From a virus (lineage: Duplodnaviria; Caudoviricetes), in the IMG/VR virus record IMGVR_UViG_3300017910_000401, positions 1-56,142 of that record: 56,142 nucleotides of DNA. One strand, given 5' to 3'. How positions within the stretch are numbered: position 1 is the first letter of the stretch; the number at the start of each line of letters is the position of its first letter. Below are positions 2,887 to 10,159 of the stretch, piece after piece. The notes beneath the pieces were generated by a model that was given only the letters and a program-made list of their open reading frames with translations, searched no databases and was not told the origin of the DNA. Made by a program: the position numbers and the translations under genes.

Positions 2887-3041
2887 GATTTATTTACTGG
2901 TAAAAAATATTATTAACGCAGTGACATATATAAATTTTTACATTTTCTAGCTGTAAAAAAACACCCACGCTAGAACCCAGTAAATATATATCACTAGTGA
3001 ATATTTTTTTTCTATAAATCCTGGAGCCAGAAATTTCGACC

Positions 3042-4556: not shown

Positions 4557-4608
4557 AAGACCTCCATCTTATAAAAATTAGTTTAAAAAAGTTGGCTTGT
4601 AAGCCAAC

Positions 4609-4707
4609 ACCTAGACCAGAACAATCAGGTGAAAATTATTCGCTAGTGAATAATATTTTTTTATCTTGTTCTGGTTTCGATTGAATCTCACAATCTCCTC
4701 AGTAGGT
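4609..4707 (-). ncRNA. Hammerhead ribozyme HH-A (type I), predicted cut GUC between 4614 and 4613
   Basis: ACCUA-CUGAGGA-GAUUG(UGAGAUU)CAAUC-GAAA-CCAGAACAA...UUGUUCUGG-UC/UAGGU; complete core and three stems. Confidence 0.92.
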
Positions 4708-5343
4708 TTAAGTCTCTGTAAAAGTTATAGTTATACCATCACTTACAAGACCAGATACGTTTGCAAAAATACTCATAACAATTGTGTCAATTTCGTACTT
4801 TGCTTCGTAAAGTGTGTCGCATCTAAAATTTTTAGAAAAAGGCACAGCAGTTTCAAAATCATACCAAGCCATTTTGAAATTTGGATAAACGACATAATGT
4901 TTAAGATGATTATTTCTAGCAATAACAAAGTTTCGATAAAGATATTCTTTCCAATCTTTATTTTCTGATACTTTTGCTATTGCCATTTGATTACGAAGAA
5001 ACTCATAAGCTTCAGGAAAATCTTTATAAGCTTTTTGCACTTTGACTTTTGTCTTGTGCCAATCGCTTTCCTTTGGCTCTGCTTTCATTTTGTGATAAAA
5101 ATCTTTAAGACGTTTATTACACTTTTCAAAATCATCCATGAGCATAAGATATCTATGAGTTAGATTACCTTTTGCGATACAAACCTTATATTCAAAATCA
5201 AGTTTATTAAGAATATTTTTAATGGTATGTGACGTTGAATGATAACCGCTTTCATAGTAGCTTCGCATTGAATTAGGACAATTAGGATAACTGTCTAATT
5301 TTGTTTTGCTCATTTCTAAAGCATCTTTCAATAATTTTTCCAT
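4708..5343 (-). CDS. Hypothetical early protein
   Basis: 211 aa with GGAGGT RBS. Confidence 0.75.
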   Translation of the reverse strand: MEKLLKDALEMSKTKLDSYPNCPNSMRSYYESGYHSTSHTIKNILNKLDFEYKVCIAKGNLTHRYLMLMDDFEKCNKRLKDFYHKMKAEPKESDWHKTKVKVQKAYKDFPEAYEFLRNQMAIAKVSENKDWKEYLYRNFVIARNNHLKHYVVYPNFKMAWYDFETAVPFSKNFRCDTLYEAKYEIDTIVMSIFANVSGLVSDGITITFTET

Positions 5344-5370
5344 AAGACCTCCATCTTATAAAAGTTAATT

Positions 5371-5457
5371 AAACTGATTTCGGCTCTTTTGAGCCACCCT
5401 CCTAAAAGGGTACGTTTTCACGTTCATCAGGCAAAACACACATTTTGCTATCAGTTT
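5371..5457 (-). ncRNA. Hammerhead ribozyme HH-B (type III variant with extra hairpins), predicted cut AUA between 5449 and 5448
   Basis: AAACUGAUA/GCAAAA(UGUGUG)UUUUGC-CUGAUGA-[three hairpins]-GAAAUCAGUUU. Confidence 0.75.
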
Positions 5458-5552: not shown

Positions 5553-6893
5553 TTAGTCGTAGAATCTAGCAGTATCTACATAGACCACCTCGCCAAAGGC
5601 AAGACGTTCTGAATAACTGCTTTTTTCAGTACAACACCAAAACACAGGAACATCAGGCTCAACGTCTTCAGAAACGTCTCCCCAACCATCGGTAAAATAC
5701 ACTAAGGCTTGAACGTCTTCGGCATCATCAGTGTAGTCATTCAACAGATTAAATACAGGGTCAAACTCTGTACCGCCACCGCCACGAACTACTAACTCTA
5801 ATTCATCGCCTGAAGATAAATCATAGTAATCCCACCATTCCCCCTGTCCATTTTTACGAACAGTTGTGTCACAGTAGCAAACTCTGATTTTTTCAAGACC
5901 GCAGTCTTCCGCCATAGCTTGTATCTCAGTAGCAAATTTATTCAATTCGTATTGAGATACAGAACCTGAAGTATCGATTGCAACCGCTAACTCGCCACCT
6001 TGTGGAGACCTAGTTTTACTCGGCAAATTTAAACCTTGCCATGCAAACCTTTTATTCAGTCTCGACCATGAGTAATCGTTAGCAACAGAAGAACGTAAAA
6101 GGTCATTCAATTGTTCTTTCCAATCAATTGAAGTCTCTTTCAATTCTTCCATTCTGCCACCGCAAGACGAATTAGTACCGCTTCCAACAGCTACTTCTAG
6201 CTTGTCAGATAAGGCTACTGCTCTTTGAATCTCAGTTGAGATTTCTTGAATCTCAGCATCACTCAATGGCTTTCCTTCATCGTCAGTTGCATCCAACACC
6301 TCGCCAATAGTTGAAGGAATAGCATCTAAATCAATCGACTCAGATTCTTCGCCATCTTCGTCAGTTTCTTCATCAGAAATATTTCCTTCACTAGTGTCTG
6401 GTATTTCAGAATCTTGCGAATCATCCTCCATGTCCGCATTCTGATTTTGTTCCTTGACTTGCTCGATTGCTTCTTGCAGGTCATCTTCATTTTTAATTAA
6501 ATGTTGATAAACCTTTTCCGCAGACCAACCCTTGTATTTATGGTCAAGTAAACCGCCAAAAGGCAATTCAAAATTTAAATCCCAATACAAGTAAGCATTG
6601 ATAACGTAATCACAAGCAATATTCCATACTTTAGGATGACGTTTACCACGTCTTAGTGGATGTTCATAAACAACGTGCAATGCTTCGTGAACAAGTACAC
6701 CTCGCAATTCTGCTTCGGTTAATTTATCCACGAATGGCGGATAGTAAAAAATGTTTTTACCATCAGTCGCCATCGTATCGCACTTTGATTCTTCACATTC
6801 AACCAAGTCAAGATTAAGGAGCATACTAGCCATGCCAATATGCCCTTTCATCAATTTTGCTCTAGCCTTAATTATGGTTTCAAGAGTTTTCAT
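5553..6893 (-). CDS. DUF2201-type protein: HExxH metallopeptidase-like N-domain plus VWA domain
   Basis: TMATDG, LVHEALH, WNIACDYVIN, MIDAS motif DTSGS, GGGGTEF, YFTDG. The start is probably the ATG at 6893 (RBS GGAGGT upstream) rather than 6908. Confidence 0.88.
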   Translation of the reverse strand: MKTLETIIKARAKLMKGHIGMASMLLNLDLVECEESKCDTMATDGKNIFYYPPFVDKLTEAELRGVLVHEALHVVYEHPLRRGKRHPKVWNIACDYVINAYLYWDLNFELPFGGLLDHKYKGWSAEKVYQHLIKNEDDLQEAIEQVKEQNQNADMEDDSQDSEIPDTSEGNISDEETDEDGEESESIDLDAIPSTIGEVLDATDDEGKPLSDAEIQEISTEIQRAVALSDKLEVAVGSGTNSSCGGRMEELKETSIDWKEQLNDLLRSSVANDYSWSRLNKRFAWQGLNLPSKTRSPQGGELAVAIDTSGSVSQYELNKFATEIQAMAEDCGLEKIRVCYCDTTVRKNGQGEWWDYYDLSSGDELELVVRGGGGTEFDPVFNLLNDYTDDAEDVQALVYFTDGWGDVSEDVEPDVPVFWCCTEKSSYSERLAFGEVVYVDTARFYD

Positions 6894-7866
6894 CTTTCTT
6901 ACCTCCATAAATTTTGTCGAACAAATTGCCTTTCAATCCATCAATAGATTGTTCAAGACCTTCGGCAACCTGTTCACGTTTTTGCTTTCCTAAATCTGTT
7001 TCGTCTCTAAGAGAATCAACAGAATTTATTGTTGCAAGAACAGAACAAAGACTTTGATGAGCATCAGCAATATTTTTATTATTGCCTAGTACATCCTGAT
7101 TAATAGAAGGTAGCACTTCAACCGCTTGTCTCAATTTCTCGAAACTAGATTTGTTGAAGAATCCGCCCTTCTGCTTGTTGTCAGGGTCATACTCTTTGAG
7201 TTTAGTCGCAACGTGATTAACTTGTTCTAGTAAAGCATCAACAGTAATTGTCATTACGTTTTTGATGTTTTTGTTAGACCTGTTAATCGCATCCGCTTCT
7301 ATTCTCTGCCTTAACTTTTCTGAGACGTTAAGTCTAATATCGTTTCCGAAAGTAGGTACAGGAGTCATTTCAAATTGAAACAAAAACTTTTGTCTTAATT
7401 TGTCAAAATCAATGTAGTCACTTTCTCTGAAAGCATCGCCCAAGTTTCTCTTCGCCATTTCCATTTGTTTAGGATAGCTTCTGAGAAAGCCTTGAACTTC
7501 TTTATCCCAAACAAGAGTAGCTTGGTCTACTTCATACTGAAGTCGTTCAAGATTCGTGTTAGGGCAAAGTCGCCATTCCGATAAAACTTTTCCCTCGTCA
7601 TCAAGGGATGAAGAATCATCCCACGGCAAAGTTAAAGGTTTATAAAAGTCATTCCTAAACTTATCTAAAATTTGGCGAAACTCTTTATTGATATTTCGAC
7701 CAAAGATGTGTTTAGAAACACCTAACAATTTATCGTCTGATACTTTCGTATCTTCCGCTAAACCGCTTCTCAATTTCTTATCGACTTTAATGCCTGATGG
7801 ATGTCTTGCAGTAAGACGAACCAACATACAATTTTCCGATAAGGTATTTGTTAATTTTTTATCCAT
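6880..7866 (-). CDS. Helical partner of the AAA/VWA module (possibly DUF3150-like)
   Basis: 328 aa, TLPWDD...WRLCP motif; lies between the AAA and VWA genes. Confidence 0.55.
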   Translation of the reverse strand: MDKKLTNTLSENCMLVRLTARHPSGIKVDKKLRSGLAEDTKVSDDKLLGVSKHIFGRNINKEFRQILDKFRNDFYKPLTLPWDDSSSLDDEGKVLSEWRLCPNTNLERLQYEVDQATLVWDKEVQGFLRSYPKQMEMAKRNLGDAFRESDYIDFDKLRQKFLFQFEMTPVPTFGNDIRLNVSEKLRQRIEADAINRSNKNIKNVMTITVDALLEQVNHVATKLKEYDPDNKQKGGFFNKSSFEKLRQAVEVLPSINQDVLGNNKNIADAHQSLCSVLATINSVDSLRDETDLGKQKREQVAEGLEQSIDGLKGNLFDKIYGGKKDENS

Positions 7867-7896: not shown

Positions 7897-7952
7897 TATC
7901 TGATTTCACAGTTTTCTGCTCGTCAGTTGGAATCACATTCCAATATCAGATA
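7897..7952 (-). ncRNA. Hammerhead ribozyme HH-C (compact type III), predicted cut AUA between 7944 and 7943
   Basis: UAUCUGAUA/UUGGAA(UGUGA)UUCCAA-CUGACGA-GCAG(AAAA)CUGU-GAAAUCAGAUA. Confidence 0.9.
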
Positions 7953-7958
7953 TTGAAG

Positions 7959-8013
7959 TGAGCAAGATGTAATTTTATTCACTAGCGAATAATATTTTTT
8001 TACATCTCGCCCA
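7959..8013 (-). other. Long RNA hairpin after the AAA gene stop, capped by the recurrent palindrome
   Basis: UGGGCGAGAUGUAA pairs with UUACAUCUUGCUCA (14 bp, two G-U pairs on the minus strand). Confidence 0.7.
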
Positions 8014-8027
8014 ATTCAGTTTTCAAC

Positions 8028-9077
8028 CTAGACTTCTAAGTCTTGATTCCTGATTTTAAAATCGGAATAAGTAGAAGTTTCTGCTAAGTCTGGAATTGCT
8101 CCAATCAAAGAACGAACATAGAAAATCGCAAATTCAGGAGTAGGTAATTTCTCAACATAGTTAAGACTATTTTGAAAATAATTAGCTACATTTGGATTAT
8201 CCATTTCCGATTTAAGAATCGAAACTAATGCACAAACTAGAGCATAAGATTTACCGCCCTCATCAATCATTTCTACGTCTTTGCCTTCACAAATATCTTG
8301 AACATTCGGCAAGTCATTTTTCAAAGACAAAAAGGTAAGAAATTCAATCGAAGCAGTCTCGCCAATATCCCCTTCACAAACTAGTTGCAAAATTTCTTTT
8401 GGCGGATTCGTTTTCAATGTATCAGAAAGACGAACCCAAGAACGTGGACTCGGCTGGGGAGTCGTAATTTTTGGGTCAAAGTCGCAAAGGTACTGAGGCT
8501 CATAACTAATGAATCCCAATACGTCAGGACTTACATCATTCTCAGTCGCCCAAGAAATCCAATCGTTAATGTTTTCATCTACATTCAACATTGTGCATCT
8601 GTCATTGACTTGCGTAGGAATTTTATTTGCTCCTGCTCTGTCAGTTGCCCTGTTTCCTGCACAAACAATTTTCCACCCATCAGGCAAAACGTACTCTCCG
8701 ATTTTTCTTTCATAGAGTAATTGTCCGCACACACACATGACCGAAGAATGAGCCTGAGCAAATTCATCAAAAAATAATATGCCCTCGCCACCAATTGGGA
8801 GATTACCTAAGAAGGCTCTCTTTTGTTGGTTATCTTCGTCTATGTAAGGCAAACCGCCTAAATCAACAGTCTCATAAAGTGACAGTCTAAAATCAATAAA
8901 TCCAAACTGTTTTTTAGTTGGATTGATTGAATTAACAATCTCTCTATCTTCTGCAAATTCTTCGGCTAGTTTCCTAACAATTGCACTTTTTCCAATCCCC
9001 GGTTTCCCTTGCAGGTAAGGGGTATTAGAACCCTTTAATATCGATTTCATCGATAATATAGCTTGACTCGGTTTCAT
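8028..9077 (-). CDS. MoxR/AAA_5-like AAA+ ATPase
   Basis: Walker A GKPGIGKS, Walker B LFFDE, AGNR, PSPRSW. Confidence 0.9.
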   Translation of the reverse strand: MKPSQAILSMKSILKGSNTPYLQGKPGIGKSAIVRKLAEEFAEDREIVNSINPTKKQFGFIDFRLSLYETVDLGGLPYIDEDNQQKRAFLGNLPIGGEGILFFDEFAQAHSSVMCVCGQLLYERKIGEYVLPDGWKIVCAGNRATDRAGANKIPTQVNDRCTMLNVDENINDWISWATENDVSPDVLGFISYEPQYLCDFDPKITTPQPSPRSWVRLSDTLKTNPPKEILQLVCEGDIGETASIEFLTFLSLKNDLPNVQDICEGKDVEMIDEGGKSYALVCALVSILKSEMDNPNVANYFQNSLNYVEKLPTPEFAIFYVRSLIGAIPDLAETSTYSDFKIRNQDLEV

Positions 9078-9130
9078 ATAAGACCTCCATCTTTTATACC
9101 AAGTTAGAATTCGTTAGCAGAATTGCTAAC

Positions 9131-9211
9131 ACCTAGAAGCAACCTTTTTACAGGCTAGACTTAAATCTATTTAATGCTTTTCGCTAGAGTTTCACTAGCA
9201 CGTCAGTAGGT
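9131..9211 (-). ncRNA. Hammerhead ribozyme HH-D (type I, A9U core variant), predicted cut UUC between 9136 and 9135
   Basis: ACCUA-CUGACGU-GCUAG(UGAAACU)CUAGC-GAAA-AGCA...UGCU-UC/UAGGU; overlaps the stop codon of the upstream ORF. Confidence 0.8.
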
Positions 9212-9625
9212 TTCTCTAAGAACTTCTTTTCCTAAAGTTAAATCGTAATGAATCTCCCTCGTTAGTTTAGGACTTTTAGTCTTGTCAATCCTAATCCAAT
9301 TATTAGATTCTTTGTCCTGATAAAGTCTAGGCTCAAAGTAAATATGAGTCTCGTTATCGTTCATTTGATATTTTTCAAATGAGGGAATCCAATCATCAGA
9401 TTCCATTCTCCAATCGATAAAATCATACCTAGTCATTACGTTGTCTTTTTTAATTAATTTAATTAAAGGCAAAATCTCTTTTACCAATTCAAGACTTTCA
9501 CTTGAAGAAATATCCTCAATTACGAACTCAGTTAATCCTTTAGGCTTCCAATAATCATTACCTTCCGCAGGATTTTCTACGTTGTAATTTGCAAATGTCT
9601 GAAAAGTTAATACTAATTTGCTCAT
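9203..9625 (-). CDS. Hypothetical early protein
   Basis: 140 aa, QTFANY...YWKPKG motif, GGAGG RBS. Confidence 0.75.
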   Translation of the reverse strand: MSKLVLTFQTFANYNVENPAEGNDYWKPKGLTEFVIEDISSSESLELVKEILPLIKLIKKDNVMTRYDFIDWRMESDDWIPSFEKYQMNDNETHIYFEPRLYQDKESNNWIRIDKTKSPKLTREIHYDLTLGKEVLRETY

Positions 9626-9680: not shown

Positions 9681-9743
9681 ACCTAGACCAACCCAAATTA
9701 ATTGAGTTGGTTTCGCCTGAATTTCACAGGCTCTTCAGTAGGT
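9681..9743 (-). ncRNA. Hammerhead ribozyme HH-E (canonical type I), predicted cut GUC between 9686 and 9685
   Basis: ACCUA-CUGAAGA-GCCUG(UGAAAUU)CAGGC-GAAA-CCAACUCAA(UUAAU)UUGGGUUGG-UC/UAGGU. Confidence 0.95.
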
Positions 9744-10049
9744 TTAGAATTGTTGAATAACATATCCTCCGCAATCAGTTTCTAAAACTGTGGTCACATC
9801 TTTTATGCTCTCCAATGTTGAATAAATTGTGCTTGTTCCATTGATTGAATAATCAGCAATCAATTCATCAACATTTTTATATTCCGCATAATCACAACAA
9901 ATGGCAATCACATCTAATTCTAAATTTTCCAATTCAGACAAATGCTCGTACAAAGCCTTTAACCCTTCTCTTGAAAAGTTGTTGGCATATTGTCCTGAGT
10001 TTCCAAATTCATTAATGAATTGATTTTCGTTTAAAGTTTTATATATCAT
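9744..10049 (-). CDS. Hypothetical early phage protein
   Basis: 101 aa, NFSREGLKALYE...ELDVIAICCDYAEY motif, GGAGG RBS. Confidence 0.75.
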   Translation of the reverse strand: MIYKTLNENQFINEFGNSGQYANNFSREGLKALYEHLSELENLELDVIAICCDYAEYKNVDELIADYSINGTSTIYSTLESIKDVTTVLETDCGGYVIQQF

Positions 10050-10093: not shown

Positions 10094-10159
10094 CCTCCTG
10101 AGTTTCTTGAATCCAATTAAGGATTCTCATTCAGCACGTTAATTCGTGGACTCTGGAGG
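10094..10159 (-). ncRNA. Hammerhead ribozyme HH-F (type III variant with kissing loops), predicted cut GUC between 10149 and 10148
   Basis: CCUCC-A-GAGUC/CACG(AAUUAA)CGUG-CUGAAUGA-GAAUCC(UUAAUU)GGAUUC-AA-GAAACUC-A-GGAGG. Confidence 0.8.

Follow-up and report, generated by a model that had tools for sequence, protein, structure and literature searches.

Type I hammerhead ribozymes have been described at the flanks of genes in phage and prophage transcripts, and they have been proposed to cut long phage transcripts into mRNAs of gene length (Perreault et al. 2011, PMC3088659). The main text of that paper names a number of natural core variants, i.e. U3-A8, A6C, an insertion after A6, U13a, U15.1-A16.1 and U10.1-U11.1, some of them active and some inactive, and a passage of a 2019 review (PMC6765202) calls the role of self-cleaving ribozymes in phage operons open. 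Here we analysed a 56,142-nt stretch of phage DNA (IMG/VR record IMGVR_UViG_3300017910_000401; hereafter the window), in which a type I hammerhead-like motif, HH-D, lies on the minus strand at 9131-9211. Upstream of it is an ORF of 140 amino acids (orf140; 9203-9625, minus strand) without a family match, for which, besides an identical cluster entry, the homologue search gave a single truncated relative of 86% identity. Downstream is the gene of a MoxR-like AAA ATPase (8028-9077, minus strand; phrog_1297, E 2.9e-73; the AAA_5/AAA Pfam matches are weak and under the cut-off), with its ribosome binding site (RBS) GGAGG at 9088-9084 and its ATG at 9077-9075. We argue that HH-D is a real and selectively maintained member of a family of ribozyme cassettes, that the U at its core position 9 (U9) is a lineage-specific variant which most likely still cleaves, and that the stop codon inside its core is incidental; to this reading as a whole we assign a probability of roughly 0.6.

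The assignment of HH-D draws on its sequence, a descriptor match, the minimum free energy (MFE) fold and covariation in 19 homologous sequences. All of its parts are given here on the minus strand. The 5-bp stem I pairs ACCUA (9211-9207), rightly named as the stem I arm in the preliminary description, with UAGGU (9135-9131); all five pairs are kept in 19 of 19 aligned sequences and two of them vary on both sides. The core strand C3-U9 follows as CUGACGU (9206-9200), with U9 at 9200, and fits the hammerhead consensus C3-U4-G5-A6-N7-G8-A9 at six of seven positions, the deviation being at position 9. Next comes stem-loop II (9199-9183), in which GCUAG and CUAGC close the 7-nt loop UGAAACU, and then G12-A13-A14 (9180-9182), which border A15.1 (9179) and are invariant across nine U9 rows recovered by a pattern that leaves these positions unspecified. 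Stem III (AAGC/GCUU, 9137-9179) contains a three-way junction: it encloses the AUUAAA junction (9175-9170), hairpin IIIa (UAGAU/GUCUA, 9169-9156) and hairpin IIIb (GCCU/AGGU, 9155-9142). The pairs A15.1-U16.1 and G10.1-C11.1 are present and invariant in 19 of 19 rows. From hammerhead geometry the scissile bond is predicted between C17 (9136) and the U at 9135, and the triplet U-U-C fits the N-U-H rule, in which H is not G. Stem I is adjoined on its 3' side by an 18-nt hairpin without a U run (GUUAGC, 6-nt loop, GCUAAC; 9130-9113), which would come to lie near the 5' end of the downstream RNA once HH-D has cut. The MFE fold of 9109-9211 (RNAfold) gives all of the HH-D helices at -26 kcal/mol (z -2.29; equalled by 4 of 200 shuffles) and in addition pairs U9 with G12; fold and covariation together place the three helices I, II and III around a central core. 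The 3' end of orf140 reads GAA-ACC-TAC-TGA, its last eight bases being the start of the type I layout, and its TGA (9205-9203) is U4-G5-A6 of the core. Thus the embedded stop codon, the CUGACGU core with its A9U change, the UUC triplet and the two additional stem III hairpins, all of them put forward in the preliminary description, were borne out by the sequence and, for the hairpins, by the MFE fold as well.

With position 9 left free, a type I descriptor found three sites in the window, HH-A (4609-4707), HH-D (9131-9211) and HH-E (9681-9743), which share their stem I and all lie in gaps between the genes of a single minus-strand operon. On 200 dinucleotide-preserving shuffles the same descriptor gave no site in 196 and one site in four, and a strict hammerhead pattern matched once in the window against none in 100 shuffles. 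Both HH-A, which has a long stem III insert, and HH-E are paralogues with A at position 9 (A9) that adjoin stop codons, as had been noted earlier: HH-A abuts TAA 4708-4710 of ORF 4708-5343 and HH-E abuts TAA 9744-9746 of ORF 9744-10049. An Rfam scan of the whole window returned no match at gathering thresholds; at E<=10 HH-D was still absent and only HH-E was reported, below threshold, as a RAGATH-1 hammerhead (35.5 bits against a gathering score of 56.3). In a blastn search against cultured phage records there was no match for the 8-kb operon and none for HH-D. Beyond the missing Rfam match nothing favours the view that HH-D is a chance resemblance or a sequencing error private to the window, whereas the U9 motif recurs in 13 IMG/VR loci, 21 metagenome loci and one genome-collection contig, and both the shuffle controls and the covariation described below count against such an origin. 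We therefore treat it as ruled out, its probability being practically nil, and U9 is not a private mutation of the window phage.

To place HH-D among its relatives we collected homologues of the ATPase (779 at E<=1e-10, 27 of them aligned) and took the best 80 of 416 IMG/VR loci; these 80 comprised 57 distinct upstream regions, nearly all of them with a type I hammerhead in the matching slot. Run over all collected loci, the descriptor gave 203 sites, which comprise 97 distinct type I sequences. Of these, 90 have A and seven have U at position 9, 95 have U and two have C at position 4, and 75 have C and 22 have A at position 17; the sample is biased, since two of the searches targeted the three-way-junction subtype and one of these required U9, and the U9 copy at locus L130 was missed by the descriptor owing to a mismatch at 15.2. 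The usual cassette consists of UAA, a 5-bp stem I, a CUGANGA core, stem-loop II with a UGARAYU loop, GAAA, a stem III that is either plain or a three-way junction, the cleavage site, a hairpin and an RBS, the hairpin beginning at most 2 nt from stem I in 91 of 111 contexts. HH-D has the same parts, namely a 5-bp stem I of the ACCWA/UWGGU type, a UGARAYU loop II and a 3' hairpin followed by an RBS, between co-oriented genes, and when it was aligned with 18 relatives (10 of them with A9) the mean column identity was 80%. Hence HH-D is, as judged from sequence, a member of a large family of intercistronic type I hammerhead cassettes placed between early genes of pelagiphage-like marine phages.

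With regard to a tertiary contact between stems I and II, conservation in the family extends to loop II, which is kept as UGARAYU, and to the AA on the 5' side of stem I. A kissing contact of loop II with the 3' hairpin loop was considered but found no support, as loop II stays UGARAYU whatever the hairpin loop and no covariation of the two was seen. The genes upstream and downstream of U9 copies differ among phages, and at L130 (1122-1224) a chimera is found in which the body of a U9 motif continues from stem I into the 3' hairpin and leader that HH-E has in the window; the cassettes seem to serve as places where gene modules are joined by recombination. Other natural core variants were also seen. 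Loci L197, L200, L201, L225 and L208 have C in place of U4 (CCGAUGA) in an otherwise canonical type I hammerhead, accounting for 2 of the 97 distinct sequences and lying about 140-160 nt upstream of the ATPase start (1501 in L197, L200, L201 and L208), and many family members, among them L163, L159 and L167, combine A17 with a U-U mismatch at 10.1-11.1 upstream of the ATPase, a mismatch already known in nature from Perreault et al. 2011 (PMC3088659, as named there).

We then asked how the U9 form has been maintained. A pattern for the three-way-junction subtype with position 9 left free recovered 35 IMG/VR loci and 19 distinct 103-nt sequences, nine with U9 and ten with A9. Across these 19 sequences 96.4% of the cells in the proposed helices are paired, against 32-48% with slid partners, and 13 pairs vary on both sides; among 500 shuffles none attained the observed value on four of five measures, and nine did so on the fifth. 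Stem III (helix 3) has three of its four pairs varying on both sides and IIIa (helix 4) four of five, IIIb (helix 5), which belonged to the search pattern, is without variation, and the 3' hairpin (helix 6) is paired in 98.2% of cells with three of six pairs varying on both sides. Stem II seems broken in eight A9 rows, but only through an alignment shift caused by a shorter loop. The U9 form is represented by nine distinct sequences at 13 loci in IMG/VR, and a metagenome scan requiring U9 gave 44 loci, 21 of which (15 distinct rows) were judged on inspection to be the motif and 23 to be chance matches. The U9 copies have five versions of stem I, always with matched arms (e.g. AACUA/UAGUU and ACCAA/UUGGU), C or U at N7, three versions of IIIa with compensatory changes, differing 3' hairpins and flanking genes, and at least five different downstream genes; stem II, by contrast, has a single sequence in all of them, and 15.2-16.2 is always an A-U pair. 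At the essential core positions other than 9 no change was found in U9 copies. The other searches used patterns that fix the core; free of this bias is a pattern of the 3' half only, which leaves the core free yet demands a similar 3' half. The U9 core was intact at every one of the 13 loci that it recovered, and of the 36 columns left free by it 10 vary, none of them among the 10 essential core positions (P about 0.02, a rough value). These observations argue that the U9 form has been kept by selection as a hammerhead and not as a mere cluster of hairpins. On the other hand, all U9 copies have one stem II sequence, so the lineage may be young, and their conservation may then partly reflect a lack of time to decay. 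U9 and A9 copies evidently swap in one slot: locus L137, whose ATPase is 99% identical, has an A9 hammerhead where the window has U9, and in L250 and L267 a U9 copy upstream of an ATPase start (ATGAAACCA) is followed by the same 3' hairpin and leader that follow canonical copies in L139-L146.

In the hammerhead core, position 9 lies in the part responsible for placing the general base. The classic mutational study of the hammerhead is reportedly that of Ruffner et al. from 1990. In the literature that we searched, including the accessible part of PMC9901934, published per-base rates for A9U were not found. In the L-platform scheme, as outlined in PMC6961537, a base anchors the general-base guanine via its Hoogsteen edge, and in the wild-type hairpin ribozyme this base is a uracil; if this uracil is equated with A9 of the hammerhead, a mapping which is our own, the comparison favours a chemistry retained with U9. 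We consider that the U9 core is probably still catalytic, perhaps slower than an A9 core. HH-D RNA would then cut itself after C17 (9136), leaving the orf140 message with its stop codon and, at the 3' end, the folded ribozyme; the message of the ATPase would begin with a 5'-OH, five nucleotides and the hairpin. The U9 variant has spread into several gene contexts. Several observations do not sit easily with this reading. A9 is found in 90 of the 97 distinct members, hammerhead cores fit the consensus almost always and some core variants are inactive (Perreault et al. 2011, PMC3088659, in its main text), the predicted U9-G12 pair would take up the Watson-Crick face of G12, the presumed general base, and no Rfam hammerhead model reports HH-D.

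Much the same observations can be read to mean that U9 abolishes cleavage and that HH-D is a catalytically dead, hammerhead-shaped RNA which persists for some other reason, be it as a structured spacer against Rho or exonucleases, a protein-binding site or a homologous linker through which gene modules recombine. The near-invariance of A9, in our family as in the cores discussed in PMC3088659, and the predicted U9-G12 wobble would both be expected of such an RNA, and the L130 chimera shows that cassettes recombine. Nevertheless, a structural element would not need the ten unpaired or essential core bases, and these are invariant in U9 copies while N7, loop II and the stems vary; nor would a dead element be expected to exchange with A9 copies in one slot. 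We therefore regard a dead HH-D as unlikely, though it deserves to be kept in mind. A bolder reading, to which we likewise give a low probability, is that U9 defines a natural active class with altered kinetics, slower or conditional, in which U would replace the A9-G12 anchor and the U9-G12 wobble would serve as an off state; such a class could set a partial processing of the orf140-ATPase message, and stops placed at the 5' edge of the ribozyme throughout the family would allow terminating ribosomes to time the cut.

The preliminary description had also proposed that a ribosome terminating at the stop of orf140 would unfold the HH-D core, which would couple both the cut and the freeing of the ATPase mRNA to the translation of orf140. 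To see where stops lie in general, each of 111 distinct type I contexts was assigned the longest stop-to-stop frame (50 codons or more) that ends nearby. In 52 contexts the stop is a TAA directly adjoining stem I; in 13 it is the core UGA, 12 of them with A9; in 10 it is a TAA or TAG overlapping the first base of stem I (-7), and in seven it lies deeper inside the ribozyme (+8 to +12). Twenty-three further frames stop 8 to 54 nt upstream of the first core base, adjoining TAA excluded, and six are unclear. The trinucleotide UGA is present in every hammerhead core. Ten distinct U9 rows could be compared, and eight have TAA directly before stem I; GAA is found only in the window, where it stands in the place of the usual TAA, and the ORF therefore continues for three codons to the in-frame UGA. 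The stop inside the HH-D core is, on these counts, an incidental and commonplace side effect and not a special switch.

It may be noted that U at -8 is conserved in 86 of 111 contexts, A at -7 in 95 and A at -6 in 109, even where they do not form the stop in use, and that UAA at -8 is kept in 74 contexts and is the called ORF stop in only 52; since it is conserved even where it is not used, UAA looks like one of the elements of the cassette. In nearly all ribozymes of the family the 5' half would lie under a terminating ribosome, and a transient occlusion of this half is plausible for the family as a whole and not as a property of HH-D. In favour of gating by translation are the closeness of stops to the ribozyme family-wide (52 of 111 adjoining stem I, 13 at the core UGA and 17 at -7 or +8 to +12), the conservation of U at -8 and A at -6, and the finding, as described in PMC4824070, that a ribosome represses a terminator placed a few base pairs after a gene. 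However, a stop in the core is not special to HH-D, eight of the 10 U9 rows are built differently, the UAA seems to belong to the cassette, and occlusion would presumably be limited to the duration of termination. Furthermore, the cut lies 3' of the ribozyme body, because of which the stop codon always remains on the upstream product, and no coupling is required to avoid a non-stop mRNA. We thus consider a translation-gated HH-D quite improbable.

HH-D is one of six hammerhead-like sites within about 5.6 kb of the window, three of type I and three of type III layout. HH-B (5371-5457, minus strand; type III, CUGAUGA core) has two additional hairpins between A9 and the stem II hairpin ahead of GAAA; among its relatives L260 is plain, with one U followed by the same stem II, and L197 and L176 have similar inserts of one or two hairpins with differing sequence, which makes the insert recurrent in this phage group. 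HH-C (7898-7951, minus strand) is a compact type III site with a CUGACGA core, A at position 17 and a G-U pair at 10.1-11.1, located between the ATPase gene and ORF 6880-7866; close variants lie downstream of the ATPase in L137 and L138. The sixth site (10100-10153, minus strand; type III layout) belongs to the leader that precedes the operon's first gene; its 4-bp stem I is closed by an AAUUAA loop, and two additional A stand ahead of G12. In the window its core has one additional base (CUGAAUGA); its relatives have CUGANGA, and L137 has C at position 4.

Other elements were noticed in the same operon. The 3' hairpin after HH-A (4591-4608, minus strand) is followed by six U and fits the consensus of an intrinsic terminator. 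A palindrome of about 20 nt, TATTCACTAG-GAATA, occurs in four intergenic regions of the minus-strand operon, at about 2492-2512, 2985-3005, 4635-4656 (inside stem III of HH-A) and 7975-7996, and is possibly an operator or promoter element. The leader AAGAUGGAGGUCUUAUG precedes several genes (4570-4590, 5355-5375 and 9078-9095) and has similar counterparts in many loci; in its predicted fold the Shine-Dalgarno bases lie in or beside the loop of a small hairpin.

As regards the phage itself, its TerL has 55% identity with the TerL of Pelagibacter phage HTVC027P, and we therefore take it for a pelagiphage-like marine phage; in the first 22 kb of HTVC027P a scan for a hammerhead core together with stem II gave no match, and our literature search found no paper linking hammerheads with pelagiphages. 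Scanning a genome collection gave seven loci, and the one examined, L291, is a 3.6-kb contig identical over 201 nt which carries no evidence of a host. Two marine metatranscriptome runs with small shares of matching sequence yielded four contigs of 151-189 nt, all inside the ATPase gene and none over a ribozyme, and were uninformative on RNA ends, cleavage and expression.

Up to six hammerhead-like sites stand in one early operon of these abundant marine phages, each as part of a cassette that also comprises a stop codon, a 3' hairpin and an RBS. A U9 kept naturally across many phages and gene contexts would show that the contact at position 9 is replaceable, and U9 hammerheads would provide ribozyme chemists with a natural test case. 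The cassette family would likewise offer a sequence-defined system in which the role of ribozymes in phage operons could be studied, and natural variants differing only in stop position could serve to probe translation coupling.

By its sequence HH-D belongs to a known class of ribozymes, within which its core variant is new and conserved; its context, several hammerheads between phage genes, is of a known kind too. In synthetic insulators of the RiboJ type a self-cleaving hammerhead is followed by a hairpin, placed at the new 5' end, and by an RBS; the order of parts equals that of the HH-D cassette, which is natural and is repeated between genes of one operon. With the RAGATH-1 hammerhead (RF03152) the family shares the type I layout and a 5-bp stem I, and HH-E aligns over the whole of that model, but the RAGATH-1 model has a 5' hairpin whereas our family has a 3' hairpin. 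The hairpin ribozyme belongs to a different class; its natural and fastest anchor of the general-base guanine, in the account given in PMC6961537, is a U, which would correspond to position 9 of HH-D if our own mapping holds. Like the phage hammerheads described in the main text of Perreault et al. (2011), those of the window have a three-helix core and stand close together, several of them between the genes of one transcription unit. In contrast to the variants named in that main text, HH-D has A9U, although the figures or supplements of that paper might list an A9 variant, and in contrast to the arrangements described there, the motif here belongs to a fixed cassette, in which a UAA stands on its 5' side and a hairpin on its 3' side, and the operon has six sites in about 5.6 kb.
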